Shown: positions 2,627-27,257 of the stretch, piece after piece
Numbering within the stretch: the stretch's first letter is position 1
Layout: the number at the start of each line of letters is the position of its first letter
NCBI GenBank assembly: GCA_963676915.2
Contig: CAXXVK010000070.1
Location: 1 to 63,941, forward strand
From: Myxococcota bacterium
GTDB taxonomy: Bacteria > Myxococcota_A > SURF-8 > G963663525
Length of the DNA: 63,941 bases
Reading direction: 5' to 3'
The notes under the pieces: model-generated
Databases searched by the model: none
Told to the model about the DNA's origin: nothing
The model's input: only the letters and a program-made list of their open reading frames with translations
Program-made: the position numbers and the translations under genes

Positions 2627-3745
2627 AAAGCCACAATACACAAAACGCCGAAAAGGGTCGGATTGCCAGCAGTGTTGTTGATGGTGTTTCGGCGGTTTTC
2701 GACGGTTTGGACCTTGTGGTTTCCCGCGCTCTGGGACGGACACCAAAATCCATGCCGCTGTTGTATATCGATCTGCTCCAGCGTTGCAACCTGCGTTGCG
2801 TACCTGCGGGTTCGCGTCGGATTATCCGGTTTCCAGGCAGGAAATGACGACGGAGCAGATTCGGAAAATCCTTGAGGAATCCCGGCAGTTGCACACCCGG
2901 ATCGTCTCGTTCGGTGGTGGGGAGCCGTTCTTGAGGGACGATCTCGTCGAATTGATCGAAATCTGCGAAAACCTCGACTGGCGGCGCACGTCAATACGAA
3001 CGGAACACGCCTGAATGAAGAAACCATTGAAAGGCTAAGGGATTTTCAGCGGTTGACCCTCGTTGTAAGTCTGGATCATCCCGATCCCGAACGGAACGAC
3101 AGCATCCGAGGCCGTGGAGTGTTCGAGCGGGTACGGGACACGGTGGCTCGCCTGCGAGAGCGCGCTCCGAACGTGCATGTGGGAATCAACTGTGTGATCA
3201 GCCGGAAAAACGTTGCATCGTTGGAAGATATGGTGCGGCTGGCCGGTGGCTGGGGCGTCGATTCGATAAAGTTTACGCCATTTCATGACAACTTGAACCA
3301 CCGTTGGCGTGAATACTCCGAAAAATTCAGGCTTTCTTCTCGGGATTTACCGGTGTTGTCGAGACAACTGGAAGCCGTGCCGAGCCTTGCCAAACGCTTC
3401 GGTATGATGACGAATTCCCGCGCATTTCTGGACGGTATCCTGGAATTCGTGGCGGGACGGGCTCCTAAAATTCCCTGTTATGCCGGATATTTGTATGGCA
3501 ACATCGATCCATACGGTTTTCTGTTTCCCTGTTACGATCACCGCGAGCGGCTTGACGTGCTCGAATCGGGTCTTGTCGCTGCCTGGAAAAGTCCCACCAT
3601 GCGGCGAATGCGTCGCCGGGTGCGAACGTGCTCGTCTCATTGCTGGAACACAGGCAACGCCGAGCCGTCGATACGAATGGATCCGATCGTGATGGGGCGA
3701 TATCCAGGACAACTCTGGAAGATCTTCGTTTTTATCTTTTTTTGA
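2623..3745 (+). CDS. Radical SAM protein with C-terminal SPASM/Twitch-like Cys cluster; apparent frameshifts near 2800 and 2977
   Basis: Joined frames give QRCNLRC-x-x-CGF (CxxxCxxC), SFGGGEPFLRDD, AHVNTNGT, VSLDH, then CYAGYLYGNIDPYGFLFPC...CSSHC. The 3' end may also be shifted (alternative stop ~3758). Confidence 0.75.
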
Positions 3746-4233: not shown

Positions 4234-4895
4234 ATGGCCAGAACAGTTGTATTTTTTCTTTTCATGATCGTAACGCTAACCTTTGCACCGATCATGGCAC
4301 AGGCGGAAACCGCAGCGAAATCGGCTGCACCGGCGGGCGAGAAAGCGCAGGCGGATTCGCAAAAACAGTACGACGTGAAAATCAAACAGCTCGAAGAGAA
4401 CATCTCCCAGCTGAAAGAGAAAATCTTTCGATCCAAGGCTCGTTTGCTGGTTCTCCAGGAAACGATCCTGAAGGGAGTCATCGCCGGCGCCAAGGCCGTG
4501 GTGGTTCACGAGGATCAACTCGGGGGGTTGTATTACCTCGAATCCGTCGCGTACTACCTGGATGGCAACCCATCTTCGGGCGTACGAACGAAAACGGTGA
4601 ACTCAAGCCGGGGACGGATCTCCAGGTCTACGACGGCAACGTCAACCCCGGTAACCATATGTTGACCGTGTACATGGTTTACCGTGGTCAGTCTTCCGTG
4701 TTTTCGTACATCGAAGGCATCAAGGTGAAGCTGAAAGCGAATTACGTCTTCAAGGCGGAAGAAGGCAAAGTGACCCGCGTGGACGTGAAAGGATTCGACA
4801 AAGGCGGCGTGACGGCGCAGTTCGAAAAACGGCCGGGCGTCAAGTTCGATTCCAACTATCTCGACTTCACGGAAATCGGCACGACCGCCAACTGA
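4234..4895 (+). CDS. Secreted coiled-coil plus beta-rich protein leading the Glt-like cluster; apparent frameshift near 4570
   Basis: Signal peptide (..PIMAQA) and IKQLEENISQLKEKIFRSKARLLVLQETIL. Restoring one base at ggcaacccatc joins ORF 4234-4665 to ORF 4659-4895 (GNPIFGRTNENGELK...NHMLTVYMVYRG). Confidence 0.65.
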
Positions 4896-4969
4896 GTCGA
4901 AGCGGTCGAACGTCCGGGTGTCTATCTCTGGAGTGAACCCTCGATGGGAGAAGCGTTTTGCGTAGCCTA

Positions 4970-7295
4970 ATGAAATTGACCGTTTTTCTTACGGTTTCGG
5001 TCCTTCTAGCGGGGACTGTCGGCGCCGCCGAGCCGTCGAAGGAGAAAAAAGAAATCCTCCGGAAGCTCGATGTGATCGAAGCCGACCTCGCCGGTGTGGA
5101 AGAGGAAATCAACATCAATCAAGGTCGTTACGTACGGACTATCGCTCGCCCGGAAGGCGAACATTTCGAGGCGCGGTACGAATCGGCGAAATTCCACTAT
5201 ACCGAAGAAGACTATGCCACAGCCGCCATTATCTTTAACGACCTGATCGAGTTCGAGAACGTCAAAGAACGTCCTGAATACCATGAAGTCCGGTACCTTC
5301 TGGGGGATTGCCTGTTTCGGAATCGCAATTTCGCCTTGGCTGTGCCGCACTTGATGAAGACCGTTGCCGAAGACGAACCCGGCGAACGGCGGCAACTGGC
5401 GATTTTGAAGCTCGTAGACTGCTTTGTGAACCTGCGGCAATTCGAAAATGCCCAGAAATATTACGAAATGTTGAAAGGTGGAGGCGCGGGAAAAGATTTT
5501 TCCGAAATCCAGTTCGATTACGCTCGTGCCCTTTACAATCTCGGACAGTGGGATCGGGCGTTCAAGGTGTTTTCCAACGTTCCCGACGATGGAACCTATC
5601 GCTGGCAGGCCGAATATCACTTGGGTACGATCAAAGTTCAGCAAGCAAAGGCATTGATCGTTCAGCGAAATGAGGATGAAGCGTCCTCGTTGCTGATGGA
5701 AGCCATGATAATGTTCGATTCATTATTGGATCGTACGCCTGTTTCGAAGGAACAGCGCCTCATTCGGGAGCTGGCGATACTTGCCGGAGCGCGAATCCGC
5801 GTGCAACTGGAACTGCTCGACGATGCCATGTCGATGTACCGTCGAATCGATTCGCGTTCCCCGTTTTTCGATCAAGCGTTGTATGAAATCGCCTGGGTGT
5901 TGTTGAAACAGGATAAATTGCAGGAAGCCGAAAACGTCATCGAAGTGCTGTTGGTGACGGTTCCCGGAAGTATTTTCGTTCCCGAAGCGCACCTATTGAA
6001 GGCCAATATCCTGATGCGACGGGAAGAGTATTCCGAAGCGGAGTTGCAGTTCAAATCCATTATCGACCGCTATTTGGGTACGGTGGAAACGCTGGATCTG
6101 ATGGTTGCCCAGTCCAAAGGGCAGTCGTCTGAAAAAATCCTGCAAATCCAAGCCTCGAAAAAGGGTGAGCTTTCCGTGACCGCCATGAACTGGCTGGGAC
6201 ATCGGACGAGTGTAGACCGCGCCGTTCGTTTGCAGGCGTTGATCGAGGAGGGGTACAAGGATACACAGCATTCTCAGCGTGTGATGGATGCTTTGGCTGT
6301 GCACTTGAATCAGAAAACAAGGCCAACATCTTTTCGAACCAACGTGAAGGTCGTGAAAAGGGCAAAGACGTGGAACATCGTCTTACCGGACTGGATCGTG
6401 ACCTGTTGGACCTCACCGCGCTTGTTGCCGGAGCGAGGGATGAAAAGAAACTGCAGAAAGCTCGCGAAAATCGTAAAGAACTCGAAGCGAAATACGCCGC
6501 CGTCCGAAAACCGAGAAGGAACGCAGCAAACGACGTATGAACAACCTGCTTCGGCTCGACAATCTGCGGCGCTCGGCCGACGGTCTCGAAAAGAGATCGT
6601 CAACAACATGGACCCCGTGATCGAAGACGTGCGGCGTCGTTATCTCTTCTGGAAGAATCACCCGGATGCTTCCCCGAGAAGCTTGCTGCCATCGAAAAAG
6701 AGTTGAACGACCTGAGAACCCAGAGAAACGAAGCGTTTAAAGCGACACGCACGTCTCTGAAGAAGTCAGCAAGCAACGGGAAATTACCAAGATCGGCGAT
6801 CAGGCTGAAAGCGAAGACGATAAAATTCGCAAGGATCTTGAAAAAGCTATCGAAGAAGAAAAGCGCCTTTTCGCGGCTCTTCCGGCAGGAGGAGCAACGG
6901 GGGAGATGATCGATCGTCTCAAGGAGCAGCGCAAACGTTTGGATCAGGCTAAAGAAGACAACAAAAAGTATCTGGCCGATCTGGAAGCGCTGGTCGCCGA
7001 ACAGGCGGCTTACCTGGCCGATCGTGTCGGTAGGGAAGCGAAGATTCTGCAGGAATATTACGGGGATGTGGTCAAATATAGAGAATTGGCCAGAGAACTG
7101 GCTGCGGAAGTGGCATTCGATAATCTACTTCACGTACGCAACATGTTCCATGAAATCGTGTTGCGGGCCGATGTGGGAAATGTGGATATCGCCTGGGAAA
7201 AACGGGACCGCCTGAGAGCGAAAATAGACCAATTGCTCAATCAGCGGACTCAGGAACAACAAGTTCTGGACCGGGCTTTTGCAACAGGGCACTAG
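4970..7295 (+). CDS. Secreted TPR/coiled-coil protein (GltC-like position); several apparent frameshifts between ~6320 and ~6905
   Basis: Signal peptide MKLTVFLTVSVLLAGTVGAA and TPR helices (RYLLGDCLFR, FDYARALYNLG, QALYEIAWVLLK). The C-terminal fragment 6906-7295 contains VLRADVGNVDIAWEKRD. Confidence 0.65.
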
Positions 7296-7306
7296 CGGGG
7301 CTTGCG

Positions 7307-10300
7307 ATGAAACAAGGCGGCTTTACGTCGAATTCGACACGAATTTTTACAATTGTTCTGATTTGTTGGCTTGCTGTCGGCACCGCTTTCGCTCAGGGGA
7401 ACCTGGGAGAAACTGCCGCAGATGACGCACTGCTGAAGTCCGTCGTCAAGAAAAGTCGACGGGTTCAGGCCGAACCGACCCAAGAGGATTTCGCTCAGGT
7501 CGAGGACGTCAAAAAACGTTTTGCCGAGCATGGAAAATCGTTTTACGAAGACATCCAAACCCGCATTCAAAACGAATATGATCGCAAAAAGAAAGAACTC
7601 GAAGAGCGATACGATCGTGAAGTCGAACTGCTCGAAACCAAGGAAATCGATGCCATTCTGGCGACCATCGAGCAGATCAAGAAGTTTCTCAAACGCTATC
7701 CCAACGAACCGAAATTCACGCCGGACGCTCTGTTCCGGTTGGCCGAACTATATTACCTGAAATCGAAAAAAGAATACGATCTCGACCGTCAAGGGGCGAT
7801 TACACGCTACGAGCAGTCGCTGAGGGACTACGACAACGCCTTGGAAGAATACGACAAGGCGATGAACCGGTGGTTCGACGAAGGTGGAAAAGGCCCGGAG
7901 CCGCAGCCGCCTGCCCCGAGCCTGCTCCGCCCGGCCCTGATTTTACGAAAAGTCTTGCCCTGTACGACTTGATTATTAAAAAATTCAAAGATTACCGTTA
8001 CATAGATGTTGTTTACTATCTGAAAGCTTTTGCCCATCAGGAGCGCGAGGAAACCGAGCAGGTGCGCTTGGCGATGAAAGCGCTGATCAAGGCACGACCG
8101 GACAGCCGCTATGTCGGTGAAGCCAACTTGCGTATCGGTGAAGCGTTTTTTTGCGGATTTCCAATACAAAGAAGCTTTAAAATATTTCAAAAATGCTCGG
8201 GAAATCGACGATCCCACGTTGCGTGACCAGGTTTTATACAAGCTGGCCAGCGCCTATTTCATTATCGGCGATTACGACAACGCGATCAAAACCTTCGGCG
8301 ATCTCAACGATTACTCCGAAGTCATGAACGAAGATCCCGAGTACTTGCGGCATTCCTATTTCCGGGAAGAGTCGATCAAGTACATTGCCTATTGCTACCA
8401 GCAAGGCAAAGGATATTGGAAAAAATCCGGTATTCGCAACGCGATCCGTTATTTCGACAAGCTTGGTCCCAAGCCTTGGGTCGGTGAAGTTTTCAAGGCT
8501 TTGGGCGATTACTACAAAAACACCACGCGCTGGGATGATGCCGTTGCCGCCTATCGGCAGGCGATCAAACGAGATCCCTGGAACCCTGGAAATCCGCAGA
8601 TCCAGGACCAGGTCATTCAGATGTATTTCCAGAAGAGCGACGAAAAAGGCCAGGCGCGGGAACGTCAGTTGCTGGCCGAGAGCTATTCTCCCTCCAGCGA
8701 GTGGGCCAAAAACAACGTAATGAATCCCGAAGCCGTGCAGGCGGCGCGGGAACTCGTGCAGGAATCGCTTAAAAATTCGGCGATGTACCAGCACTCTCAG
8801 GCGCAGATCGTTCGTGCCCAGGCCAAGGAAGCCACCGACGAAGGAGAAGAGGCGCGCCTGATGAGAGAAGCCAACGCTCTGTATCTCAAAGCGGCTTCAT
8901 TGTATTACGATTACCTTGTCAACTATCCCAACGATAACGATTACTACGAACTACGCTATTTGATGGCGGATGCCTACTTCTACGCCGGAAAGTATCGGGA
9001 GTCGATTCAGGAATACAAGGTCGTTCGGGACAGCAAGTTGTCGCGAGAGCATTTTGAAGATGCCGTGTTCGGTATTCTGATGGCCTACGACAATCTGATT
9101 GCGATGAAAAGCAAGACCGGACAACTGGAGGCAACGAAGGAAGAAGAAGAACAAGCTTCCAAGGACGTGCGAGAAGGAAAAATCACCGAAACGCCGTTCA
9201 ATGAAGACGAACAAGGTTACATCGATGCGGCGGACTACTATGCGATCCATGGAAAACCCGGTCAGGACAAGCACATCGATGAATTTGCCTACAATACCGC
9301 GTTTATGTATTTCGAGCACAAAAAGCTTGAAGAAGCACGTCGGCGCTTTGTCGAGTTCGTCGAAAAATTCCCCAAATCGCCACGGGCCGGTGATGCTGCC
9401 CGGAAGATCGTGGATACCTACATTCTTGTTCGCGATTGGGTGAAGGTGCAGGAATGGTCCCAGAAGCTGAGCGATCTAGAACTTGGCGAGGGCGACGAGA
9501 AACGCGAGCGCGTGCGCGGCGAGATGCAAAAAGTCCTGTCGCTGGCCATTGCCAAAAACGCCCAGGTCTTGCAGGAGCAAGGGAAATATCTCGAAGCCGC
9601 CGAAGCTTACTTGCGGGTGGTGGATCGTCAGAAGGACGATAAAGAAATCGCGGCGGCGGCCTTGTACAATGCAGCGATCATGTATGCCAAGGCCGATTCC
9701 CCGGCGAAGGCGATGGAGCTTTACAAGCGGATGGTGAAAGAATTTCCCGATGCTCCGTACGCGGCGACGGCACAATTCAACCTCGCCGATGCTGCCTATT
9801 CCAGTTACAACCTCGACGAAGCGGCGGTGGCTTTCCAGCGCTTGTACACCAAGTACCCCGTCAAAAAGGATGATCCTGACCGCGAAACCAATCTGAAGCG
9901 TAACTGCAACGCTCGGTATCTACATGCGGAGTTGATGGAATTCAATCACAAGTATTCCAAGGCGGCGGCGTTGTATGAAACCTATGTTGCCAAATGCGGC
10001 GATATGATGGAAGACGGCGCGGAAGTGCTGTTGAAGGCCGCCAAGCTGTATTCCAAGCTTGGCGATACCAAGCGGACCGACAGGATTTACAAGAAGTTCG
10101 TTTCCAAGTACAGCCGGGATAAAAAACAGCATCGCTGGGTGGTAGATGCCTATCGTCGCATGGGTGACATGTACTGGAAACGCAAGAAAACGACCGAGGC
10201 GAAAAAGTATTACAGCAAGGCGATCGAGTTTTTCCACGATCATCACCAACTGGCTGTAGATCCGCTGGCCAACGAGGCAGCGGCGGCATCCGAGTGGGTC

Positions 10301-10945
10301 TTTTTGGAGAAGGAATTCGACCGCTTCAAAGCGTACAAGATCCGCGCCAAACGGCAAGACAAGTTGATGAAAGAGTTCGAGACGAAGAGCAAAATGGCGT
10401 TGGAAATGGTGGATCGATACAAAACCATCTTCCAATACAAGTCGCCCGAACATATTCTCGCCGCGAAATTCCGTAGCGGTTTATGTCTCGAACTGTACGG
10501 AAATGCTCTTTTCGATGCTCCGGTTCCCCGCGACGTGGAACGCATGGGCGATGAAGCGATCTTCATTTATCAGGATCTGCTCAACGAAAAGACGCGACCG
10601 ATCTACAACAGCGCCACTCAACAATATATGGCGACCCTGGAAGAAGCTCAGAAAGCGAAACTGTACGATTCAGTGTGGATGAAACGCCTGATCGAAGCGC
10701 TCAACCGGCCGAATCTCCAGGAGTTCGTGACAGGCGAGTTCAAAGCGCGCAAGCAGGAAAAGAGTTCGTTCAGAGAAACTGTAATGGTGCCCCTGCGGAT
10801 GGATAACGGTAAGGAAGTCGTTCCGGCTTCTGCGCAGGAATCGGAACCGGAAGCCGAGTCCGCCGAACCCGGTGAAACAGAAGCTGTGGAAACCGAAGCG
10901 GTGGAGGGGGGCGAAGTCGCCGCCGCAAGCGAGAGCAGGGGTTGA
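7307..10945 (+). CDS. Large secreted TPR protein, GltD/AgmU-like; apparent frameshifts near 7920 and 8150
   Basis: Signal peptide, FLKRYPNEPKFTPDALFRLAELYY, and many TPRs (DQVLYKLASAYF, ALYNAAIMYAK, AQFNLADAAY). ORFs 7307-7972, 7870-8226 and 8111-10945 join into ~1200 aa. Confidence 0.7.
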
Positions 10946-11016
10946 TGATGACGGGTAGGAATCAGATGCAAGACTGCCGTTTGCGTTGGGTCATTTCCCG
11001 GTCTCGGGGTTGTACG

Positions 11017-13068
11017 ATGACAAAAGGTGTTTTGTTTCATACTGCAATGGTTGCTTTGTTGCTGTTCGTGGTCGTTTTGATGTCGTCTTGCGCAGGAAAG
11101 AGCGCCACGACGAAGACCGACGACGCCACCGCCGAAATGCTGGCCGTCGAACCGGTGGAAAGCCAACAACAACCCAGCGAGCCTGTGGAAGAAGCAGCTC
11201 CCGAACCCGCCGAACCGGAACCAGAGCCTGAAGCTGTGGAACCAACGGAGCCGGAAAGCGCCGAAGCTCCTGCCGAACCTGAAAAACAGAAGAAAAGTCA
11301 CGTTGTTACAGGTGTTGGTGAACCGAAATTCCGGGAAGCCGTCGAAGCGGCTCCGACCGATCCCGACAAGGCAAAAATGCTGTTCTCGGAAGCCTTGCAA
11401 ACGGATGAAAACCTTTACCAGGCCCACAACAACATCGGCGTGATCGAGATGTGGAAGGGGCAATATGCCCAGGCCCGGCAATCTTTCGGAAATGCGATTC
11501 GGTTGGAGCCGGAATACGAAGAACCTTACATCAACATGGCCTTTACCTGGACGCTTCAGGGCGACAGGGATTCGGCCTGTGGATATCTCGAACAACAGTC
11601 TCGGAAAACACCGGAACTGCTCGATGTTCGAGCGGCTTCTGCGCGGTGCATGGTCGAACAGGGACGCGTCCGTGACGGCATCGACGAAGCCAAGAAGATT
11701 TTGAAAGAAGACGAGCACAACGTTCGTGCGTTGCTGGCGATGGGGTGGGGATATTACGCCCAGGGCAAGCAGGAACTGGCCAACATGGTGTTCAACACCG
11801 TGAAAACGAAAGATCCGAACGAAGCGGAAGCCTATCACGGCATGGCGATCGTCGCTTTCAACGACAACCGACGTTCCGAAGCGAAAGCCTACTGGCAAAA
11901 AGCCGTTGAACTTCGACCGGATTTCCCGGAAGTTCATATCAATCTTGGTGTTTTTTACCTGGAAGATCAGGAGTTTGAACAGGCGCTGGCCAGTTTTGAC
12001 AAAGCCCTGGCTTACAATCCTTTGCTTGTGGAAGCCTACCTGAATCGCGGAAACGCCTTGGCCGGTTTGAACCGGGAAAAAGAAGCGCTCGCGATGTACG
12101 ACAAAGTGGAGCAGATGGACCCGGGTCGGGTGGAATTGCTGTTCAACCGTGGATTGATGAAACTTCAACTCGAACCTGTGCAGGAAGAAACGGCAACAGA
12201 GGGTGACAACACCGACGTAAACGAACTCGTGGCCCAGGTTGAAGGCAGCACGGAAAATGCCGAGCCGAAAGCGCCGGATCTTTCACGATTCGATGAAGAA
12301 ATCAGTGAATTGAAGAAAAAGAATGCGCGCATCGAAGAAGGTATTGCGCTGTTGAAGGAATACAAAAGCAAAGCCGGTAACCTACCTGATGATGATCCGA
12401 CGGATCAATACATCAAAGAAGCCGAGAGCAATATCAAGCGAAACGAACGCGAGATGATGGTTGCAGAAAAGAAAAAGCAACGTGAAATCAGGCGTTTCGA
12501 GGACGAGCAGGAAGAGGCTCGTTTGCGTGCCGAAGAGAATGCTCAACGGGCGGCTCAGGGTTTGCCGCCGTTGCCGGAACCTGGCAGTGAAGAAGAAATG
12601 ATGGACGAAGGTCTGCCGCCCGAGGGTGGTGAGGCTATGCCGGAAGAGGGTGTCGATGAGGCGCCGATGGAAGAAGCTCCGGTAGAAGGAATGCCCGAAG
12701 AGGCTGCTCCGGTGGAAGATGCTCCCATGGAAGAGGCTGTTCCGGCGGAAGAAGTTCCGGCCGAAGAAGCGGTTGCCGCTCCTCCGGTAGAAGAAGCGCC
12801 AGCGGAAGAGGCTCCTGTTGCTGACGAAGAAGCTGCCGTTCCGCCTCCACCCGAAGCTGAAGAAGGTGCCGTACCGCCGCCTCCGGCGGAAGAAGCGGTT
12901 GAAGCACCTCCGGCTGAGGAAGTGCCCGAAGCAACGGAAGCACCCGTGGAAACTCCGGCGGAAGAGGCGGTAGAAGCTCCTGTTGAGGAGACGGTAGAGG
13001 CGCCACCGATGGAAGAGGCTGTGCCGCCTCCACCCGATACGGTTCCACCTCCACCGGAGGGAATGTAA
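11017..13068 (+). CDS. TPR lipoprotein, GltE/AglT-like, with long acidic Pro/Ala/Glu-rich C-terminal tail
   Basis: Lipobox LMSSC, canonical TPRs (AHNNIGV, VHINLGVFY, AYLNRGNAL), a coiled coil, then ~150 aa of E/A/P/V repeats. Confidence 0.75.
   Translation: MTKGVLFHTAMVALLLFVVVLMSSCAGKSATTKTDDATAEMLAVEPVESQQQPSEPVEEAAPEPAEPEPEPEAVEPTEPESAEAPAEPEKQKKSHVVTGVGEPKFREAVEAAPTDPDKAKMLFSEALQTDENLYQAHNNIGVIEMWKGQYAQARQSFGNAIRLEPEYEEPYINMAFTWTLQGDRDSACGYLEQQSRKTPELLDVRAASARCMVEQGRVRDGIDEAKKILKEDEHNVRALLAMGWGYYAQGKQELANMVFNTVKTKDPNEAEAYHGMAIVAFNDNRRSEAKAYWQKAVELRPDFPEVHINLGVFYLEDQEFEQALASFDKALAYNPLLVEAYLNRGNALAGLNREKEALAMYDKVEQMDPGRVELLFNRGLMKLQLEPVQEETATEGDNTDVNELVAQVEGSTENAEPKAPDLSRFDEEISELKKKNARIEEGIALLKEYKSKAGNLPDDDPTDQYIKEAESNIKRNEREMMVAEKKKQREIRRFEDEQEEARLRAEENAQRAAQGLPPLPEPGSEEEMMDEGLPPEGGEAMPEEGVDEAPMEEAPVEGMPEEAAPVEDAPMEEAVPAEEVPAEEAVAAPPVEEAPAEEAPVADEEAAVPPPPEAEEGAVPPPPAEEAVEAPPAEEVPEATEAPVETPAEEAVEAPVEETVEAPPMEEAVPPPPDTVPPPPEGM
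12595..13065 (+). repeat. Low-complexity coding repeat (EEAP/PAEE/VPPPP units)
   Basis: Recurring gaagaggct/gaagaagc and ccgcctcc units encode EEA(P/V), PAEE and VPPPP. Confidence 0.8.
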
Positions 13069-13277
13069 ACGGTTTATCGGTCGAATCCTCTTCGAATCCG
13101 AGGAACGTTTTTCGAAAGAGGATGGGGATTTAGTGGAAAGAGCGAGGTTTCTGTAAGAAAAAGCAGCGTTTTTTCCGGTATGGGGAAAGAAGATAATGGT
13201 TTTGGCGGAAAAAAACCTTGAATTCGTGAGGTTCCTGAAGTAGCATCCGCCATACCCGATACCTTGCGAGGTTTGGA

Positions 13278-13517
13278 ATGAGAAAGTGGCTTTTCTTGCT
13301 TGCTCTGGTTGGGGGGATGGTCGTAGTGTCTTCGACTTCCGCTTTTTGTGCGGGCAAGATTCAACTGGAGGAAGGTAAAATCGAAGGCAAAATCGTTCGA
13401 CCGGAAATGTCTTTGATTCTTCATCGGGCCAAGATCGATTACGATACGTTACGAACGGATTACGATTTTCTTGAAAAGGTCGTGGATGCAGTGGAAAAGG
13501 AAGACGTTCTTCGCTGA
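13278..13517 (+). CDS. Small secreted protein, GltF/CglF-like
   Basis: 79 aa with a signal peptide. IQLEEGKIEGKIVRPE...LRTDYDFLEKV resembles the GltF 'IeG.l.kP...r.dF..el' pattern, and it follows the GltE-like gene. Confidence 0.6.
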   Translation: MRKWLFLLALVGGMVVVSSTSAFCAGKIQLEEGKIEGKIVRPEMSLILHRAKIDYDTLRTDYDFLEKVVDAVEKEDVLR

Positions 13518-13642
13518 AAAGGGGAGAAATTTCAGGCCATTGCAAAAACGATTGAAATAAACGAGACAGTTTCAGGAAATTTTGGGAAATAGTGCGTCTT
13601 ACGCACAAATTTTCGACTAGACAACTCTTAAGGAGGAAACAA

Positions 13643-14290
13643 ATGGAATGGTTGGGTGGTATTCAGAAGTTTATGATGGACGGCGGAGCGTTTATGTGGA
13701 TCATCGCCGTGGTTTCCGTTCTGGCGATCGGTGTCTCTCTTGAGCGCTTTTACTTCCTGTTCTTCCGTTTCAACATCAATGCGTCCCAATTCTGGACCAA
13801 CGTGCAGAAACTGGTTATGGCGAACAACATCGACCGTGCGATCAAGCTTTGCAACGCCGCTGGCAATGCGTCGCTGCCCAAAGTCATCAAAGCCGGTCTG
13901 ACCCGTGCCAACAAAGGTGAAATCGAAATCGCCAACGCGATCGAAGAAGCGACTCTGGAAGTTCTGCCGCAGTTGCAGAAGCGCACCAACAGCCTGTTGA
14001 CTGCCGCTCAGATCGCCACTTACCTCGGACTGCTCGGAACCATCTTCGGTATGATCGCGGCCTTCGAAGCCGTGGCCAGCGCCGCCCCCGAACAGAAAGC
14101 GACCGCTCTGGCCAGCGCCATTTCTATCGCCATGAACACCACCGCTTTCGGTCTGATCGTCGCGATCCCGTCCCTGGCGGTGCACATGGTTCTGTCCGGT
14201 CTGACGCAGAAGATCATTCACGAAGTCGATCAGTACTCCGTGAAGCTCGAAAACCTGCTCGTTTCGCGCAGCAAGGGTAGCGCCGAATAA
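13643..14290 (+). CDS. MotA/TolQ/ExbB proton-channel protein (AglR-like)
   Basis: AGGAGG Shine-Dalgarno, GGAFMWII...LERF, ATYLGLLGTIFGMIAAF and AMNTTAFGLIVAIP. Confidence 0.92.
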   Translation: MEWLGGIQKFMMDGGAFMWIIAVVSVLAIGVSLERFYFLFFRFNINASQFWTNVQKLVMANNIDRAIKLCNAAGNASLPKVIKAGLTRANKGEIEIANAIEEATLEVLPQLQKRTNSLLTAAQIATYLGLLGTIFGMIAAFEAVASAAPEQKATALASAISIAMNTTAFGLIVAIPSLAVHMVLSGLTQKIIHEVDQYSVKLENLLVSRSKGSAE

Positions 14291-14314
14291 GATTTCACGC
14301 TCCGGTTCGAAAAA

Positions 14315-14351
14315 CCTTCGATGAAAGACCGACCGGTTCTTTCATCGAAGG
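14315..14351 (+). promoter_or_regulatory. Intergenic 14-bp-stem hairpin between the TolQ-like and first TolR-like gene
   Basis: CCTTCGATGAAAGA (14315-14328) and TCTTTCATCGAAGG (14338-14351) form a perfect inverted repeat with no U-tract. Confidence 0.55.
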
Positions 14352-14403
14352 GCATCTATTAATTGCGTGAGAAATACTGGTTGGAACAACCCGGAGAGGC
14401 GAC

Positions 14404-15144
14404 ATGTCCAGGCGTTTAAACCGATACAAGAAACTTGCCGAAGGCAATGATATGAATCTCATCCCGATGATGAATCTCATTGCTCTTCTGATTCCGACTC
14501 TGATGATTTCGACAGAGTACCTGAAAATCGCAACGATCGCGGTTTCGTCTCCGCAGGTAGGACCGAAAAACACGGCTCCGGCAGATCCCAACAACGAAGA
14601 AAAAGAGAAACCTCTTCAGTTGACGTTGGGTGTGACGAGCATCGGCTTCTATCTCAAGTGCAATGTCGATGCCTGCAAGCCGCCCGAAGGCGTAGCGGCG
14701 ACCGGTGGACAAGGCGCGGATATCGGCAAGGTTCCCGTAGATGTGTACAACACTCGTGAAGAATCCGGAATCACGAGGGAGGTGCTTCGCATCTGGAAAG
14801 GTGCGGACGGTAAAAAGTACATGTTGGGTGTCAAAGAAGTCGATGATGAAAAAATCGATGATGCGCTGAAATCCTACAGAGAAAGCGGAAATCTCATTTC
14901 CTCGAAAGCTCAGGATTTCGACTATCCAGCTCTGCACAAGCGTCTGCGTGAAATTTACAAGCAGGCTACCGAGCAGAACAAGCCGGACAAGAGCCAGATC
15001 ATTCTTACGCCCGAACCGAAAATTCCTTTCCACAATCTCATTCGTATTATGGATGCCTCGCGATCCTATGTTGAAGTCGAAGGGGATGCGCCAAAGAAAA
15101 AGTTGATGTTCCCTCAGGTCGTCCTGAGTGCGGGTGTCGTGTAG
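14404..15144 (+). CDS. ExbD/TolR-family protein 1 (AglQ-like), with enlarged periplasmic domain
   Basis: MNLIPMMNLIALLIPTLM transmembrane segment; C-terminal FDYPALHKRLREI...IILTPEPKIPFHNLIRIMDASR...MFPQVVLS. Confidence 0.8.
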   Translation: MSRRLNRYKKLAEGNDMNLIPMMNLIALLIPTLMISTEYLKIATIAVSSPQVGPKNTAPADPNNEEKEKPLQLTLGVTSIGFYLKCNVDACKPPEGVAATGGQGADIGKVPVDVYNTREESGITREVLRIWKGADGKKYMLGVKEVDDEKIDDALKSYRESGNLISSKAQDFDYPALHKRLREIYKQATEQNKPDKSQIILTPEPKIPFHNLIRIMDASRSYVEVEGDAPKKKLMFPQVVLSAGVV

Positions 15145-15219
15145 TAGATTCCTTCAGCGCCTCTTCCTTGAAGGGGTGTGCCGTATTTGGCTGGAATTTT
15201 CTTCCGAGGAAAGAAAACG

Positions 15220-15807
15220 ATGAGCGATCAGGAAAAGAAAGAATTGACCCAAGAGGAACTCGAAGCTATTCAAGACTTCGAGGCGATCAAGGCCAAAAGA
15301 AAAGCTAAGAAAGCCAATCGTGGCGGGGCTGCAGAAGGCAATCTGTCGATTGACTCCCTGTTGGACATCTTGACCATCCTCTTGGTCTTCCTTTTGATGA
15401 ACTATTCTACGGACGTGACCAACGTTACGCCTACGGACGATCTTCAGCTCGTGAAATCCATCGAGATTGAAAAGACGCACAAGCAAATGGTTCCGATTGG
15501 AATCACCCGCGATTTCATCTTGGTCGATAACAAGCCTATCGTTCAGGTAAAAGACGGGCGCGTAAGCGCTTCCGCCAAGCGTGAAGGAGCTGACGGCTTC
15601 TTCATTACTCCGCTGTTCGACTCTTTGGAAGAAGAGGCGAAAAAGCAGCGAAAAATCGCTCAATACAACAGTTCCATCAAGTTCGAAGGTCAGATGATGG
15701 TGATTGTTGATGAGAATGTGCCGTATCGTTTACTTTCGGAAGTGCTGTATACGGCGGGACAAGCGGAATTCGCCCAGTACGAATTCGTTGTCCTGCGCAA
15801 CGAGTAA
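15220..15807 (+). CDS. ExbD/TolR-family protein 2 (AglS-like)
   Basis: LSIDSLLDILTILLVFLLMNYS transmembrane segment with the conserved Asp; VIVDENVPYRLLSEVLYTAGQAEF. Confidence 0.88.
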   Translation: MSDQEKKELTQEELEAIQDFEAIKAKRKAKKANRGGAAEGNLSIDSLLDILTILLVFLLMNYSTDVTNVTPTDDLQLVKSIEIEKTHKQMVPIGITRDFILVDNKPIVQVKDGRVSASAKREGADGFFITPLFDSLEEEAKKQRKIAQYNSSIKFEGQMMVIVDENVPYRLLSEVLYTAGQAEFAQYEFVVLRNE

Positions 15808-16017
15808 ACAGAAAAACCAGGGATCCAGGTCACTTTTTCGAAGGGGAAGCGCTCGGCTTGCGAATTGTAAAGGGTTGCGCGTTTGTTTGACAAAAAAGTT
15901 TCGCTGCCAGGAAATCCTGTGTTATATTATATGACACAGGATTATAGATTGAAGCAAACTAGCAACAACGCTCGTTCATTCGCTTTCAAGACCCGCGCCG
16001 CGTGAGAGGATCGTTTG

Positions 16018-17391
16018 ATGGCTGAAAAGAGCCCTGAGAGAATTCTTCGGATAGGTATTATACAGAGCGGCAAAATCGTGGAAGAGCGCCTCATGAGGCG
16101 ACGTTCTGCGGTAACGATCGGTACGTCGCCCAATGCTACGTTCATCGTTCCTTCCACGAGTGATAAATTCCCCAAATCTTTCTCGGTTTTCCAGGTACAA
16201 AAGGGAAGCTATTTCCTCGTTTTCAACGAGACCATGAAGGGTAAAGTCACCATCGGTGGTGAAATGCTCGAACTGGAAGCGTTACGAACGTCTGGGAAAG
16301 CGCACAAGTCCGGGAAAAATTTCCAGGTGCCGATTTCGGATACCTCTCGTGGTAAAATCACTATTGGAGATGCGACGTTATTGTACAATTTCGTCGCCGC
16401 TCCTCCGATACCTCCGAAGCCCCGGCTTCCTGCCTCTATTCGTGGTGGTTGGGTCAAAAGTATCGACTGGGTGTTTGCTGCGGTGGTTGTTGGATCATTT
16501 CTGGCGCACTCCGCATTGTTCGGAGCAGCTGCGATGGCTCCGACTCCTAAAAAAATGTCTTTAGAAAAAGTACCCGAACGTTTTGCAAAGTTCGTTGTCG
16601 AAAAAATGCCCGAACCCGAACCTCCTCAAGAAGAGGAAGTGGCCGTAGAAGAGGGGCCGGGCGATGCGGTTCTCGAAGAGAAACCGCAAAAGGTCGAAAA
16701 AGCCGAGCCTAAGAAAAAAATGACGGATGAGCAGCGGGCGGCGGCGGAAGCTGAACGGCGACGAAAGATCGCCGAGAAAGTTTCAAACACGGGTTTATTG
16801 CAATTATTGACTGCAAAGGGACCGGGTGGCAGCAATACCATGGGTGCCTTGGTCGATACTCTTTCCGATGGTCAACGAATGGGTTCGATTTCCGATGCCA
16901 TGGAAGGTGTTTCGAAGCTGGCGGTTGCCGATGACGCAAGCAATCGTGCCAGGCGTGGCGTTGGTAGTGGTGGTGCTTCCGGCGGGACGCGAGATGTGGG
17001 TAACCTTGACGTAGCCGCAGGTGGTGGAAAGAAAACGACCAAACGCGCCGAGAAGAAAGTCAAAGCAAAGATGGCTTCCGGTCGTGCTGATATTATCGGT
17101 AGCTTCAACCAGGCCTCTTTGAAGCGTACGATTCGACGCTACGAGCCTTCCATTCGTAGTTGTTACGAACAGGAACTTCGGAGGAACCCGAAGCTTTCCG
17201 GTAAAGTCTACATCGATTTCACGATTGGTGTGACGGGTAAAGTTACGCGGGCTTCCGTAGGACGAAGCAGCCTGAAAAGTCGCGCTGTAGAGTCTTGTAT
17301 TGTCGCTCGTGTGCGGGGTTGGAGATTCCCGAAACCGCCGGACGGAGAAGTTGAAATTACATATCCGATCGTTTTCAGTGCCGCTCGTTGA
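16018..17391 (+). CDS. GltG/PglI-like TonB-type energy transducer (N-terminal FHA-like beta domain, one TM helix, AgmX/PglI C-terminal domain)
   Basis: ILRIGIIQSGKIVEER N-terminus, TM segment with a TonB-like S-x3-H (SFLAHSA), Pro/Glu/Lys linker, and IRSCYEQELRRNPKLSGKV...CIVARVRGWRFPKP...ITYPIVF. Confidence 0.82.
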   Translation: MAEKSPERILRIGIIQSGKIVEERLMRRRSAVTIGTSPNATFIVPSTSDKFPKSFSVFQVQKGSYFLVFNETMKGKVTIGGEMLELEALRTSGKAHKSGKNFQVPISDTSRGKITIGDATLLYNFVAAPPIPPKPRLPASIRGGWVKSIDWVFAAVVVGSFLAHSALFGAAAMAPTPKKMSLEKVPERFAKFVVEKMPEPEPPQEEEVAVEEGPGDAVLEEKPQKVEKAEPKKKMTDEQRAAAEAERRRKIAEKVSNTGLLQLLTAKGPGGSNTMGALVDTLSDGQRMGSISDAMEGVSKLAVADDASNRARRGVGSGGASGGTRDVGNLDVAAGGGKKTTKRAEKKVKAKMASGRADIIGSFNQASLKRTIRRYEPSIRSCYEQELRRNPKLSGKVYIDFTIGVTGKVTRASVGRSSLKSRAVESCIVARVRGWRFPKPPDGEVEITYPIVFSAAR

Positions 17392-17483
17392 CTTTCGTCA
17401 ATATCGACTTAAGGTTCTAGAAAACGTGACGAAAGAAAAAAGTGTCACAAAAAAAGAAAAAAGTTAATTCGGTTGACAAAGCC

Positions 17484-17512
17484 TTGACACTGATATATAT
17501 GTAATCTAAACT
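17484..17512 (+). promoter_or_regulatory. Candidate sigma70 promoter
   Basis: TTGACA (17484-17489), 17 bp spacer, TAAACT (17507-17512). A second TTGACA sits at 17473 with an A-rich upstream tract. Confidence 0.5.
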
Positions 17513-17666
17513 TAAGCACCAAGTGACGTTAACATAAAGAATTGATACTTTTACAAATTGAACGGGGATGGCAACGATAGGTTGTTGTGTTTCAAATCTA
17601 AGGTTTGAATGCAATAGCTTCCCAATTTGAACTTAAATCTATTCAGAGAATGAATAGGGGGAAAGA

Positions 17667-18356
17667 ATGAAACGTTTGCACAAAATTTTACTTCTCGGCA
17701 TGGTCGCGGCATTTTTGGCCGTAGTTGCTTTGCCTGCATCCAGTTCTTGGGCGCAGGAAAAGGATGCCATGAGCAAATCCAGTTCCGCTTCTGCTAAAAA
17801 GCTCGCGCAGAAGTCCAAGACGGAACTTGCTCAAATCAATGCTAAAATCAAAGCCTACCAGGCCAAAATCAACGATCCGAAAACTCCTGCTGCACAAAAG
17901 AAGGTGTATAAGGATAAGTTGAAAAACTTGAAAACCTATCGTGGCCTCATCGTGAAGACGATGAAAAATGCGGAAAAATGTAAAGATGATAGCTGCTACG
18001 AGCAAAATCTCGCTGTTTTGAATAAAGTGGGAGTTGCTGCGGATAAGGTTCCTGAGGCTGCTGCAGCTGACGCTGCGGCTACACCGCAGACTGCTATGGC
18101 CGCTGCATCAACCCCGGAAACTCAGGATACGCAAGCCACCAACAAAGGCGATGCTCTTCAGACTACGGTAGCCGATGCTACAGCCGCTTCCAGTGTGCAG
18201 ACTGGTGGTCGTATCGGTGGTATCGATACCGGTGGTAGTGCTCCGCCTTCCGACCCGAATACAACAGGTACTTCGGCCACGGATCAGGCTTCGACTACCG
18301 GTGAGACCGGCGGCGGAGATTCTCCTGATGTCGCACCTCCTACAAGCCCGAACTAA
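17667..18356 (+). CDS. Secreted protein: Lys-rich helical domain with Cys pair, Thr/Ser/Ala/Gly-rich disordered tail
   Basis: Signal peptide (..SSWA), KCKDDSC, and a low-complexity C-terminus ending PDVAPPTSPN. Confidence 0.7.
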   Translation: MKRLHKILLLGMVAAFLAVVALPASSSWAQEKDAMSKSSSASAKKLAQKSKTELAQINAKIKAYQAKINDPKTPAAQKKVYKDKLKNLKTYRGLIVKTMKNAEKCKDDSCYEQNLAVLNKVGVAADKVPEAAAADAAATPQTAMAAASTPETQDTQATNKGDALQTTVADATAASSVQTGGRIGGIDTGGSAPPSDPNTTGTSATDQASTTGETGGGDSPDVAPPTSPN

Positions 18357-18368
18357 TCATGAAATCAA

Positions 18369-18402
18369 GCTGTCGGAAGATAAAAAACCGTCTTCCGGCA
18401 GC
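18369..18402 (+). terminator. Stem-loop after 17667-18356 (weak terminator or mRNA stabiliser)
   Basis: GCTGTCGGAAGA...TCTTCCGGCAGC inverted repeat followed by TTAT. Confidence 0.4.
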
Positions 18403-18441
18403 TTATGAATAATTTTGATAAAAATTAAAAAGGGGAACGTT

Positions 18442-19833
18442 ATGAGAAGAATGAAGAAGGTAGGACTCTTGGCAAGCTTGCTCCTCGCGGGCTTGCTTTT
18501 CGCCTTGCCTGCTGCAAGTTTTGCACAGTCTGCTGCAGCAAAGGCAGATATCAAAAGCGGCGCCAACAATCAAGCCAAGGGTTTCAAGGTTGGCAAGCTC
18601 GTGATTCATCCTGGTATCAGTTTGCAGAATGTGTACGATACCAACGTGCAGGCCAAGCCTTCTGGAGAAGAGCTTAGCGACTACATCCTGCGAATCGTTG
18701 CTGGTCTAAAACTCAACTATCCCGATCCCGATGTCTCTTTCACATTGGATGCTAATGCCGGGTATGCTCATTATTTCGGCTTGGACGAAGATGATAGTGG
18801 TAATGATACCAGCGAACTTAGCAACATTACCGGTCAGGTTCGTGCGACGTTGACGCTGTTCCCCTCCAATACCGTCGGCGGCTGGATCAACAACAACTTC
18901 CGTCGTTTGGCCAGCCCGGAGCAGGTGGCGACATTGACCACCACGGATCGTATTTCCAATGTCGCCAACGCCGTGATGAGCATCAAACCCGGTGGTGGAC
19001 AGCTTCGTTTCTTCATTGGGTACACCAACAGCCTTATGATTTACGAAGATACGGCTGCAGAAGAAAACAACTGGATCTCGCATAAAGCCAGCGTCCAGAG
19101 CGAATGGGAATTCCTTCCGGAAACCGCGGCCTTCGCAGATTTCAATTTCTCTTATCGTACGTACAATGATTTCAAAAAAATCGCTTATAACGGTTCCATC
19201 AATGGTGTAAATGAATCCGGGACAGCGGGTCTGTATACTCAAGAAGCTCCCGACGCCATGCCGATTCGTTTTAAACTCGGTCTGAAGAGCCGCTTTACGG
19301 ATTGGTTCTCGATGACGGCGGCTGCCGGATACGGAAACACGATGTCGGTCAATGGAACCGATGATTTCAGCAGCGTGATTGCCAACCTCGAAGGTCGTTT
19401 TGATTTTACTCGAAACACCATGCTTCGTGTTGGTTTCACACGTGACTTTGCTCCTGCACCTACCTATTGGTACACGGCAAACAACAAAATTTACACCGAA
19501 TTCAAGCAATTGTTGCTGAACGAGCAAATCACTCTTTACTTGTATGGTTCGTTCGACGCGATTCAATACGGTCAACCTTCCAGCGGTGCGCTCGCCAGCC
19601 TGACGAAATACACGGGTAGCGAGCGGGATCGTACGGATATGGTGGCTACCGTGGCTCCGTCGATCAAATACGCGCCGATTCCGTTTTTCCAGATGGAACT
19701 CGGTTATCGTATGAGCACGAAAATCACGGATTACGAACTGTATTCGGACGATAGCGACAAAGCGAATACGAATCCTTCCAAGTACGATTACATGAGGAAC
19801 GAGATCTTCCTCAAGTTGGAATCGATCTACTAA
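18442..19833 (+). CDS. Outer-membrane beta-barrel, probable polysaccharide-export porin partnering the adjacent OPX (EpsX/Wzp-like)
   Basis: Signal peptide, GFKVGKLVIHPGISLQNVYDTNV start typical of capsular/EPS barrels, alternating beta-strands, terminal aromatic (LKLESIY), adjacent to a wza-like gene. Confidence 0.72.
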   Translation: MRRMKKVGLLASLLLAGLLFALPAASFAQSAAAKADIKSGANNQAKGFKVGKLVIHPGISLQNVYDTNVQAKPSGEELSDYILRIVAGLKLNYPDPDVSFTLDANAGYAHYFGLDEDDSGNDTSELSNITGQVRATLTLFPSNTVGGWINNNFRRLASPEQVATLTTTDRISNVANAVMSIKPGGGQLRFFIGYTNSLMIYEDTAAEENNWISHKASVQSEWEFLPETAAFADFNFSYRTYNDFKKIAYNGSINGVNESGTAGLYTQEAPDAMPIRFKLGLKSRFTDWFSMTAAAGYGNTMSVNGTDDFSSVIANLEGRFDFTRNTMLRVGFTRDFAPAPTYWYTANNKIYTEFKQLLLNEQITLYLYGSFDAIQYGQPSSGALASLTKYTGSERDRTDMVATVAPSIKYAPIPFFQMELGYRMSTKITDYELYSDDSDKANTNPSKYDYMRNEIFLKLESIY

Positions 19834-19854
19834 GATTCGTTTGACCTAAGCATT

Positions 19855-19892
19855 AACGCCTGAGGGAAGGTTTTCCTTCAGGCGTTTTTTTT
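19855..19892 (+). terminator. Rho-independent terminator
   Basis: AACGCCTGAGGGAA...TTCCTTCAGGCGTT stem followed by a T-run. Confidence 0.8.
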
Positions 19893-19958
19893 GGCAAAAG
19901 TTCGTCGTTTGCGGTAAAAATCGTACCGTCTTGTAAAAAACGACATAAGGGTAATGAT

Positions 19959-20618
19959 ATGAAAAAACAAAAGTACCTTTTTCTAAATGGAATATTGATT
20001 GCGTTGTTGTTGATAACGGGATGCGTTCATTCAAAGCAGGCAAACAGAGGTGAAGAAAGAGGGAAAAGCATAGGTTCAAGTGGGCAAAATCGTGAAGAAA
20101 TGGGAACCCAAGGACCGAAAGATTTAATTAGTCAGGCGGTGTTAGGACCGTCAGACGTGATCGACATACAGGTCTTTAAAGAAAAGGACTTGAGTGGTGT
20201 CTATCGTATCAACAACGACGGTACCATCATCTTTCCGTTGATCGGTTCGATCGATGTGGACGGGAAGACCGCCAACATGGTCGCTACGGATTTGCAGGAA
20301 GGGTTGAAGACCTACTTGAAGAAGCCGTATGTTTCCGTTTTCGTAAAGGAATTCAATAGCAAAAAAGTCTATGTTTTCGGCCAGGTCAAGCGTCCGGGAA
20401 CGTTTAAATTCGAAGAGCGGATGAACGTGGTTCAGGCTATCACACTTGCTGGTGGTTTTTCGGAACGCGCCGCTCGGGATTCGACAAGCGTTACGCGAAT
20501 CGTCGAAGGTAAGGAAACGCGCATTACCGTCAAAGTCGATGAAATCGGGCACGGTAGAGCACCGAATTTCTTCCTGGAACCGGGCGATATCGTTTACATT
20601 CCCGAGGGCTTTTTCTAA
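19959..20618 (+). CDS. wza: Short polysaccharide export (OPX/Wza-family) lipoprotein: Poly_export + SLBB domains only
   Basis: Lipobox LITGC, LGPSDVIDIQVF...DGTIIFPLIG, VYVFGQVKRPG...AITLAGGF and LEPGDIVYIPE. The protein ends at 219 aa with no C-terminal OM helix. Confidence 0.88.
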   Translation: MKKQKYLFLNGILIALLLITGCVHSKQANRGEERGKSIGSSGQNREEMGTQGPKDLISQAVLGPSDVIDIQVFKEKDLSGVYRINNDGTIIFPLIGSIDVDGKTANMVATDLQEGLKTYLKKPYVSVFVKEFNSKKVYVFGQVKRPGTFKFEERMNVVQAITLAGGFSERAARDSTSVTRIVEGKETRITVKVDEIGHGRAPNFFLEPGDIVYIPEGFF

Positions 20619-25408: not shown

Positions 25409-25477
25409 CGTACGGTACCTTGATCTCGAAGCGAAGGTGTTTCCCCCCAGTTGATCCAATGAACTGATAGTAAGTGA

Positions 25478-26158: not shown

Positions 26159-26243
26159 GGAGAGGCATCATAGCATGGGATGGGTAAATTTCTGAAAATT
26201 TGATTGAAAATGGACGATTTTCAGCAAAATGGTGTGAGATAGC

Positions 26244-27206: not shown

Positions 27207-27225
27207 GAAACACCCTGGGAAAATG

Positions 27226-27250
27226 AAAAAGCCTCCCCTTTCGGGGAGGC
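27226..27250 (-). terminator. Rho-independent terminator downstream of purA
   Basis: GCCTCCCC-TTTC-GGGGAGGC preceded by AAAAA, i.e. a U-tract on the minus strand. Confidence 0.8.
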
Positions 27251-27257
27251 CGGAGAA

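Follow-up and report, generated by a model that had tools for sequence, protein, structure and literature searches.

The window analysed here, a stretch of 63,941 nucleotides that makes up an entire contig (CAXXVK010000070.1, here C70; ~52% G+C) of a Myxococcota genome (GCA_963676915.2; 5.18 Mb, 74 contigs, 90.8% complete), carries at positions 4234–20618 a cluster of 12 genes, all on the + strand, in which the genes of a Glt-like trans-envelope complex and of a TolQ/TolR-type proton motor are followed by those of an 18-stranded outer-membrane beta-barrel and a WzaB-type outer-membrane polysaccharide export (OPX) lipoprotein of Class 3. By its gene order, and by the sizes and locus tags published for the M. 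xanthus proteins, the cluster matches the Glt-paralog cluster G4 of Myxococcus xanthus together with wzpB/wzaB, with its own motor retained inside. Glt-like and exporter genes are linked across the phylum, and the proteins do not belong to the canonical gliding set. With a probability of roughly 0.55, the cluster would encode a periplasmic complex driven by the proton motive force (pmf) and functionally coupled to the Wzp/Wza translocon or to its polysaccharide.

The open reading frame (ORF) listing and the family scans bore out the 12 co-oriented genes and the order proposed for them in a preliminary description of the window: a secreted protein, GltC-, GltD- and GltE-like tetratricopeptide repeat (TPR) proteins, a small secreted protein, TolQ/ExbB, two TolR/ExbD, a GltG-like protein, a second secreted protein, the barrel and the OPX. 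The individual features, including a promoter-like and a terminator-like site, are as follows.

4234..4895, + strand: gene 1, secreted protein with signal peptide, a ~40-residue helix and an 8-stranded beta-sandwich; here split into 4234–4665 and 4659–4895
4958..7295, + strand: GltC-like secreted TPR protein (TPR Pfam; GltC NF033756); here in ORFs 4958–6706, 6703–6909 and 6906–7295
7307..10945, + strand: GltD-sized secreted TPR protein of ~1210 amino acids (aa) with YbgF-like repeats (91 bits)
10942..13068, + strand: GltE-like TPR lipoprotein (GltE NF033758, PrsT), likely start near 11017, lipobox LMSSC
13278..13517, + strand: small secreted protein of 79 aa at the GltF position, with signal peptide
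13592..14290, + strand: proton channel subunit of the TolQ/ExbB/AglR type (MotA_ExbB PF01618, 84.2 bits)
14404..15144, + strand: TolR/ExbD paralog 1 (PF02472, 33.5 bits), Asn at the transmembrane position of the proton-accepting Asp
15178..15807, + strand: TolR/ExbD paralog 2 (PF02472, 32.8 bits), transmembrane Asp retained
16015..17391, + strand: GltG-like TonB-type protein of 458 aa, with conserved N-terminal domain, membrane segment, charged linker and AgmX/PglI (TonB_C-like) C-terminal domain
17484..17512, + strand: promoter-like site TTGACA-17-TAAACT, a consensus match only, in the 276-bp gap before the 17667 gene
17667..18356, + strand: secreted Lys-rich protein of 229 aa, probably helical, with signal peptide
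18415..19833, + strand: 18-stranded outer-membrane beta-barrel, Wzp-type porin candidate, likely start 18442 (BBP2_2 33.4 bits, cut-off 23.7)
19855..19886, + strand: terminator-like hairpin, 14-bp stem with a trailing T run, separating the genes for barrel and OPX
19959..20618, + strand: Class-3 OPX lipoprotein of the WzaB type, 219 aa (Poly_export PF02563 at residues 59–129, one SLBB domain at 135–214)

Exporter, motor and periplasmic proteins

The OPX has the make-up of Class 3, as it consists of Poly_export and SLBB domains only, is a lipoprotein (its lipobox Cys is kept without exception in 30 orthologs), carries no C-terminal membrane helix, and lies next to an 18-stranded barrel, with a gap of 126 bp between the barrel end and the OPX start. 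Compared with PDB entry 9N9A, which is the M. xanthus sWzaB (PMC12819527), it was aligned from residue 59 to its last residue, 219, at an E-value of 1e-52 (182 bits), and it ends where sWzaB ends. The twin-Arg position by which WzaB binds WzcB is Lys-Lys in the window OPX. A Poly_export search of the same genome returned one match, the window OPX itself. The polysaccharide co-polymerase (PCP) of the Wzc type is likewise present in a single copy, on contig C12 (Wzz/GNVR/tyrosine-kinase; ~26160–28390, L095:17661–19889, − strand), where it lies among housekeeping genes, flanked by ruvB, lpxC, an AIM24-family gene and adenosine deaminase; no glycosyltransferase, Wzx or Wzy was found around it.

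The AlphaFold2 model of the barrel (pLDDT 80.7, pTM 0.76) has 18 strands, the number of the published Wzp porins, and a disordered N-terminal stretch (residues 30–52). Foldseek with this model returned only generic large barrels, the best being the 18-stranded OccK and AlgE at template modelling (TM) scores of about 0.45–0.54 (about 0.5 when normalised to the target), and a sequence search of the barrel against the PDB gave nothing above noise. Complex prediction of the barrel, the OPX and the C-terminal domain of the GltG-like protein (residues 340–457) scored 0.00 in two runs without controls, a value that speaks neither for nor against binding.

The motor genes correspond to a stator of the TolQR/ExbBD/AglRQS kind, with one MotA_ExbB subunit and ExbD/TolR subunits, the second of which holds the transmembrane Asp. 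In the alignment of related loci, ExbD1 carries Asn in 17 of 23 rows, and the matching ExbD2 row has Asp wherever the locus has one (L081 is without an ExbD1 row). The roles are swapped, with Asp in ExbD1 and Gly in ExbD2, in five loci (L074, L031, L035, L040, L051); L084 has Gly in ExbD2 and no ExbD1 row, and L053 has Asp in both paralogs. That one transmembrane Asp is common to the ExbD pair, in either paralog, argues for a working motor under selection.

In the GltG-like protein, the AgmX/PglI C-terminal domain (NF033768) was matched at residues 366–455 with 106.4 bits, above the cut-off of 40. TonB_C is present in all 17 members of the GltG-like alignment, and Pfam detects no FHA domain in these 17 family members. 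Full-length homologs numbered 296 at an E-value of at most 1e-10, with 35–48% identity. The same genome encodes further AgmX/PglI C-terminal domains, namely in two short tandem ORFs on contig C43 (76263–77138; frames of 178 and 195 aa, each above the cut-off) and in a 656-aa frame on contig C51, beside a glycosyltransferase.

Among the periplasmic proteins, the 6906–7295 piece of the GltC-like gene aligns to the C-terminus of single ORFs of 666–794 aa in other loci, and the GltD-like protein has a weak paralog on contig C20 of the same genome. The preliminary description had called the 79-aa protein GltF-like; its position and size hold, but the family scans gave no match for it. Gene 1 had no match in the family scans either. 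The model of its intact 225-aa ortholog in a same-genus genome (L088:1085–1762; pLDDT 77.6) shows the helix and the beta-sandwich, and comparison of this model with PDB folds yielded nothing convincing (best E-value 8.7e-4; TM scores up to 0.46, on small targets).

Linkage of the Glt-like and exporter genes across the phylum

Related loci were collected by a scan with the GltG-like protein in which each species was represented by one genome. It gave 309 relatives; 80 loci were kept, all from metagenome-assembled genomes of the Myxococcota type. When the window proteins were searched against them with tblastn, the order was identical throughout. Where at least 9.5 kb of downstream sequence was available (n = 54), the barrel was found in 47 loci, the OPX in 38, both in 37, and neither in 6. 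Of the 74 loci whose upstream sequence reached 3 kb or more, 23 had the motor. Gene 1 was kept in 41 of the 80 loci, and homologs of the 79-aa protein occur in 76. As a control, the other flanking genes of the window were searched in the same manner, and 12 of these 13 genes were present in none of the 80 loci, while purA was present in six, all of one Sandaracinaceae-type group. Since the other flanking genes are not retained, the barrel–OPX linkage does not reflect a general conservation of the neighbourhood. In loci with an insertion of 6–8 kb, the barrel–OPX pair together with a small upstream gene still comes after the cluster.

The secreted 17667 protein has no Pfam or other family match and has a 55% identical ortholog in the same-genus genome (G018). 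Directly upstream of the barrel, 51 loci encode a secreted helical protein of 185–230 aa, but the profile built from this family fails to match the 17667 protein or its congener, so that the two are equivalent by position only.

In some loci, additional genes separate the barrel from the GltG-like gene. These encode an MshEN-domain protein (L033:11394–12353, L044:11433–12518, L050:8199–9200) or a cNMP-binding protein (L072:12448–12891, L041:12226–12675), the latter preceded by a conserved ~340-aa protein without family match; the MshEN and cNMP-binding inserts may be regulators of the system. In the window, purA (27258–28550, − strand) lies a few kb downstream on the opposite strand, as it does in the Sandaracinaceae-type loci L038, L047, L054, L055 and L059.

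A second, less biased sample was drawn evenly across the phylum and comprised 201 genomes. The GltG-like profile matched 164 of them at an E-value of at most 1e-20, and the best 150 of the 704 matches, located in 131 genomes, were evaluated. The OPX was matched in 119 of the 201 genomes (E-value at most 1e-25; 122 matches, all evaluated), nearly always once per genome. In at least 78 of the 201 genomes, it lay 2.0–2.8 kb (in one case 8.7 kb) downstream of one of these GltG-like matches on the same strand; in 18 genomes both were present but not adjacent, some on different contigs, and 23 genomes had the OPX without a GltG-like match among the 150. Conservation of the barrel–OPX pair beside Glt-like genes in other genomes, on which the preliminary description had made its reading depend, is hence found in the loci (37 of 54) and, for the OPX, in the evenly drawn genomes.

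For the motor, 84 of 150 listed ExbB matches were used (all with an E-value of at most 2.6e-54 and, from the same contigs, four weaker ones). ExbB, with at least 47% identity, was located 1.2–2.0 kb upstream at 76 of the best 150 GltG-like matches. Both modules combined, the best 150 of the 704 GltG-like matches divide into 44 with motor and OPX, 34 with the OPX only, 32 with the motor only, and 40 with neither.

In a quick tree of 73 GltG-like rows, motor-bearing clusters occupy the basal grades and motorless ones are nested inside, which suggests that the combination of motor and exporter is the older state. For this tree, 11 loci with ORFs shorter than 430 or longer than 560 aa were dropped, and two paralogs from the window's own genome, both on long branches, served as outgroups.

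Counterparts in Myxococcus xanthus and other systems

The M. xanthus paralog clusters G3 (nfs), G4 and G5 were defined by Luciano 2011 (PMC3169522); G4 comprises MXAN_1919–1923 (supplement of PMC3169522), and WzpB and WzaB are MXAN_1916 and MXAN_1915 (PMC12819527, PMC9603273). G4 thus lies two genes from wzpB/wzaB, which confirms the resemblance, put forward in the preliminary description, to an M. xanthus paralog cluster beside the wzaB/barrel pair. Both arrangements run from GltC-, GltD- and GltE-like proteins through a small protein and a GltG-like protein to a barrel and a Class-3 OPX, with similar protein sizes: 809, 1111, 490, 91 and 447 aa are published for MXAN_1923, 1922, 1921, 1920 and 1919, as against 781, 1220, 689, 79 and 458 aa in the intact same-genus cluster, the GltE-like protein being the longer one here (689 vs 490 aa). 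Two differences concern gene content. Motor genes are missing from G4; here, ExbB and two ExbD stand between the gene for the small protein and that for the GltG-like protein. Two genes (MXAN_1917/1918) separate G4 from wzpB, in contrast to the one found here.

A co-oriented cluster of Glt-like TPR genes, a GltG-like gene and three motor genes, as seen in the window, also agrees with the “core complex” of Luciano 2011, that is, clustered gltC/D/E/G and aglR/Q/S of unknown function in Gammaproteobacteria, Geobacter and Fibrobacter, the proteobacterial ones reportedly with an extra gene (PMC3169522). It differs from the core complex in its occurrence in Myxococcota, for which the 2011 survey described dispersed genes (PMC3169522), and in its continuation into barrel and OPX. 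The embedded motor, named in the preliminary description as the difference from the M. xanthus cluster, is not unusual, as it was already part of the core complex and lies inside the cluster at about half of the listed GltG-like matches (76 of 150).

Agl-Nfs, which moves Wza-exported polysaccharide around spores (PMC3858216), is a further relative, since it too combines a Glt paralog complex with a TolQR-type motor and acts on polysaccharide from a Class-3 OPX and barrel (ExoA/ExoB). However, nfs has barrels of the GltA/B/H type, borrows the Agl motor and has its exporter encoded apart, whereas here the exporter lies inside the cluster and no GltA/B/H matches were found. On the exporter side, the WzaB–WzpB–WzcB translocon shares the ~200-aa lipoprotein of Poly_export and one SLBB domain without membrane helix, the adjacent 18-stranded barrel and the PCP encoded elsewhere; neither a motor nor TPR partners figure in its published model, and PMC12819527 and PMC9603273 contain no mention of Glt or TonB. 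AlgK/AlgE, PgaA and BcsC, with a periplasmic TPR scaffold and a 16–18-stranded porin, offer an analogy in the way they work only: there is no common sequence family, and the cluster has separate Glt-type TPR polypeptides and a proton motor.

No published link between G4 and WzaB/WzpB was found, and for MXAN_1917–1922 the literature led to Luciano 2011 only (image-only supplements being unreadable). Likewise, no co-mention of WzaB with GltG, GltD or AglR was found in the literature; in PMC9601211, searched for glt but not for TonB, glt appears only as a gltB control strain. Both the G4/core-complex type of cluster and the Class-3 OPX/porin translocon have been described before; their linkage was not found in print, a point on which Agrebi et al. 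2015 (Nat Rev Microbiol) may bear. These authors reportedly traced Glt and Nfs back to a system for capsule assembly.

Since 2011, the G4 paralogs have been without an assigned function, and wzaB/wzpB have hitherto been treated as apart from biosynthesis genes, without explanation. The cluster suggests a job for G4, and the phylum-wide linkage merges the two questions into a single hypothesis that can be tested in a tractable model organism. Class-3 OPX translocons have been reported as the most widespread OPX class; if the coupling is true, they have a motorised partner in many myxobacteria. Should the older state indicated by the tree also be true, it would lend concrete support to an origin of the gliding and spore-coat machines from a polysaccharide-handling device.

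Proposed function, competing readings and remaining genes of the window

In the AlphaFold-based model of Agl-Glt (PMC11761067), the AglR5-AglQ-AglS stator holds GltG, the C-terminal TonB-like domain and the linker of GltG bind GltD, GltF bridges GltC, GltD and the C-terminal domain of GltG, and GltC grips the periplasmic N-terminal strands of outer-membrane barrels; Agl-Nfs follows the same plan for moving spore-coat polymer (PMC3858216). Mapped onto the cluster, this plan favours an accessory, pmf-driven role. An ExbB pentamer with the ExbD1/ExbD2 pair, one of them Asp-bearing, would turn proton flow into movement of the GltG-like protein, which in turn would act on a periplasmic assembly of the GltD- and GltE-like proteins and the small protein at the GltF position. 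The GltC-like TPR protein would join this assembly to an outer-membrane module, for which the Wzp barrel (with residues 30–52 disordered in the model) and the Wza ring would stand in place of GltA/B/H/K-CglB. As output, the translocon might be positioned or moved in the envelope, or the emerging polysaccharide might be handled or laid on the surface, in the way Agl-Nfs deals with spore-coat polymer. Such an output is likely an accessory one, and the basic export step is probably not supplied by the machine; in the published Class-3 OPX model, PCP, OPX and porin suffice (PMC12819527).

Several observations weigh against a functional coupling. The modules also occur apart, as 32 of the listed GltG-like matches have the motor without an adjacent OPX and 34 the OPX without the motor. 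Family f12 (18 genomes) has the OPX in every genome, but its GltG-like matches are all weak and ExbB gave no match at 1e-40, and all six of its barrel–OPX pairs examined are without a Glt-like gene within ~10 kb; in Sandaracinaceae-type loci, the barrel directly follows the GltG-like gene and there is no OPX. Within the cluster, the strong terminator-like hairpin divides barrel from OPX, and the promoter-like site precedes the last three genes. The preliminary description had taken these two signals as a sign that the parts need not form one transcript. Both sites exist, but promoter-like sites are no commoner in the region than in shuffled sequences (9 vs 13.0 ± 3.9), i.e., they are not enriched. 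When MXAN_1922 of M. xanthus was disrupted by a polar insertion, gliding and spreading on soft agar remained normal (PMC3169522), whereas loss of wzaB, wzpB or wzcB cuts swarm spreading (PMC12819527); according to this contrast, G4 is not needed for export of the biosurfactant polysaccharide (BPS) in M. xanthus, and wzpB/wzaB are probably on a transcript of their own. The orthology to MXAN_1919–1923 is one of order, sizes and locus tags, not of sequence comparison. Finally, three genes of the cluster are broken in frame, and if these breaks were real, the system would be dead in this organism.

The two modules could, therefore, also be independent neighbours by descent, in which case the Glt-like motor would serve another envelope task, and the barrel and OPX would operate with Wzx/Wzy and the PCP only. 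The families in which the modules are apart, the signals that subdivide the cluster, the MXAN_1922 mutant without a motility or spreading phenotype, and a published translocon model requiring only PCP, OPX and porin would all suit this reading, which is possible, if on the whole doubtful. It does not account well for the constant spacing and shared strand of barrel and OPX downstream of the GltG-like gene in at least 78 of 201 genomes, at protein identities of ~35–50%, nor for the absence of 12 of 13 other window neighbours from all 80 loci, nor for the barrel–OPX pair and the small upstream gene that still follow despite insertions of 6–8 kb.

A stronger version of the coupling would make the G4-type complex the pmf energiser of Class-3 OPX/porin secretion itself, with the GltG-like and GltC-like proteins opening or driving a closed Wzp barrel or pulling the polymer, and with the gliding and spore-coat machines as later derivatives. 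This is unlikely; if it were true, some outer-membrane export of the Wzx/Wzy type would be an energised step.

The frame breaks raise the question of whether the cluster is a decaying pseudogene array in this organism. They were located by DNA alignment to the cluster of the same-genus genome G018 (locus L088), which is complete, has the identical order and has every gene intact (gene 1 ~225 aa, GltC-like 781, GltD-like 1220, GltE-like 689, small protein 79, ExbB 215, ExbD 255 and 195, GltG-like 458, secreted protein 225, barrel 458, OPX 220). In the assembly of the window, three genes are split by indels of 1–2 nt relative to L088, which the preliminary description had not noted. Gene 1 has a 1-nt deletion near 4572; the GltC-like gene breaks at ~6318, 6504, 6594, 6677 and 6763, with several 1-nt deletions; and in the GltD-like gene, a 2-nt insertion near 7916 leaves the frame, which a further insertion, of 1 nt within a T run near 8153, restores. 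A decaying array is favoured by the count of at least eight frame-breaking indels in three genes, yet most are single-base indels at short homopolymers, and other genes of the window are split as well, namely the overlapping ORFs 320–1411 and 1101–2681, a radical SAM/SPASM fragment at 3053–3745, and a periplasmic-binding-protein domain divided between 24776–25459 and 23500–24603, the latter also with a peptidase C13 domain. Because of the short-homopolymer indels and these further split genes, which fit assembly error in a genome of 74 contigs, the breaks are most likely errors of the assembly. With nine other cluster genes intact, real decay is improbable.

That the cluster is the canonical Agl-Glt gliding machine of this organism is very unlikely. 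GltC-, GltE- and GltG-like matches, TPR proteins at the C, D and E positions, the AgmX/PglI C-terminal domain and an Agl-like stator of TolQ and two TolR are what the two have in common. All three matches are, however, far below the equivalog cut-offs: 178.8 of 650 bits for GltG (NF033760), 86.2 of 225 bits for GltE (NF033758; intact congener 93.5) and 38.3 of 450 bits for GltC (NF033756; intact congener 25.4). The families GltA, GltB, GltH, GltI, GltK and CglB had no match among the 18 ORFs scanned, and the sole GltJ match (57 bits, cut-off 450) fell on the GltG-like protein itself, in line with the preliminary description, which had recognised no gltA/B/H barrels or gltI/J genes. The GltG-like family also differs from the gliding proteins in having no Pfam-detectable FHA domain. 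A more Glt-like set is encoded elsewhere in the genome, on contig C20, where GltD/E/G-like genes, the GltG-like one with 295 bits despite a truncated frame, continue into a CglE above cut-off. The proteins of the cluster hence lie outside the canonical gliding set, as the preliminary description had supposed, and G4, the counterpart in M. xanthus, is not required for gliding.

The reading as an exosortase-linked (XrtA/PEP-CTERM) exopolysaccharide locus, in which the TPR lipoprotein would be PrsT, the barrel of the EpsL type and the OPX a short export protein, was rejected as highly implausible, given that the best NCBIfam names of three proteins (PrsT 123, TIGR03027 119 and TIGR03016 28.6 bits) remain under their cut-offs (312, 180 and 90.85 bits), that exosortase has no match in the 90.8% complete genome, and that the OPX is much closer to WzaB.

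Downstream of the OPX lies one further gene whose membership in the system is doubtful.

20739..22661, + strand: TMEM260-like protein with GT-C glycosyltransferase fold and C-terminal TPR (PF11028, 48.9 bits)

Its place after the OPX, like that of the following gene for a 192-aa secreted protein (20739–23206 for both), is shared by the same-genus genome alone (59% and 57% identity), and no real homolog of the TMEM260-like gene was found in the 80 related loci. Elsewhere in the window, 36803–38029 (− strand) and 62701–63618 (− strand) encode a Cthe_2159 carbohydrate-binding-domain protein and a DUF4423 protein, which bear no relation to the cluster.

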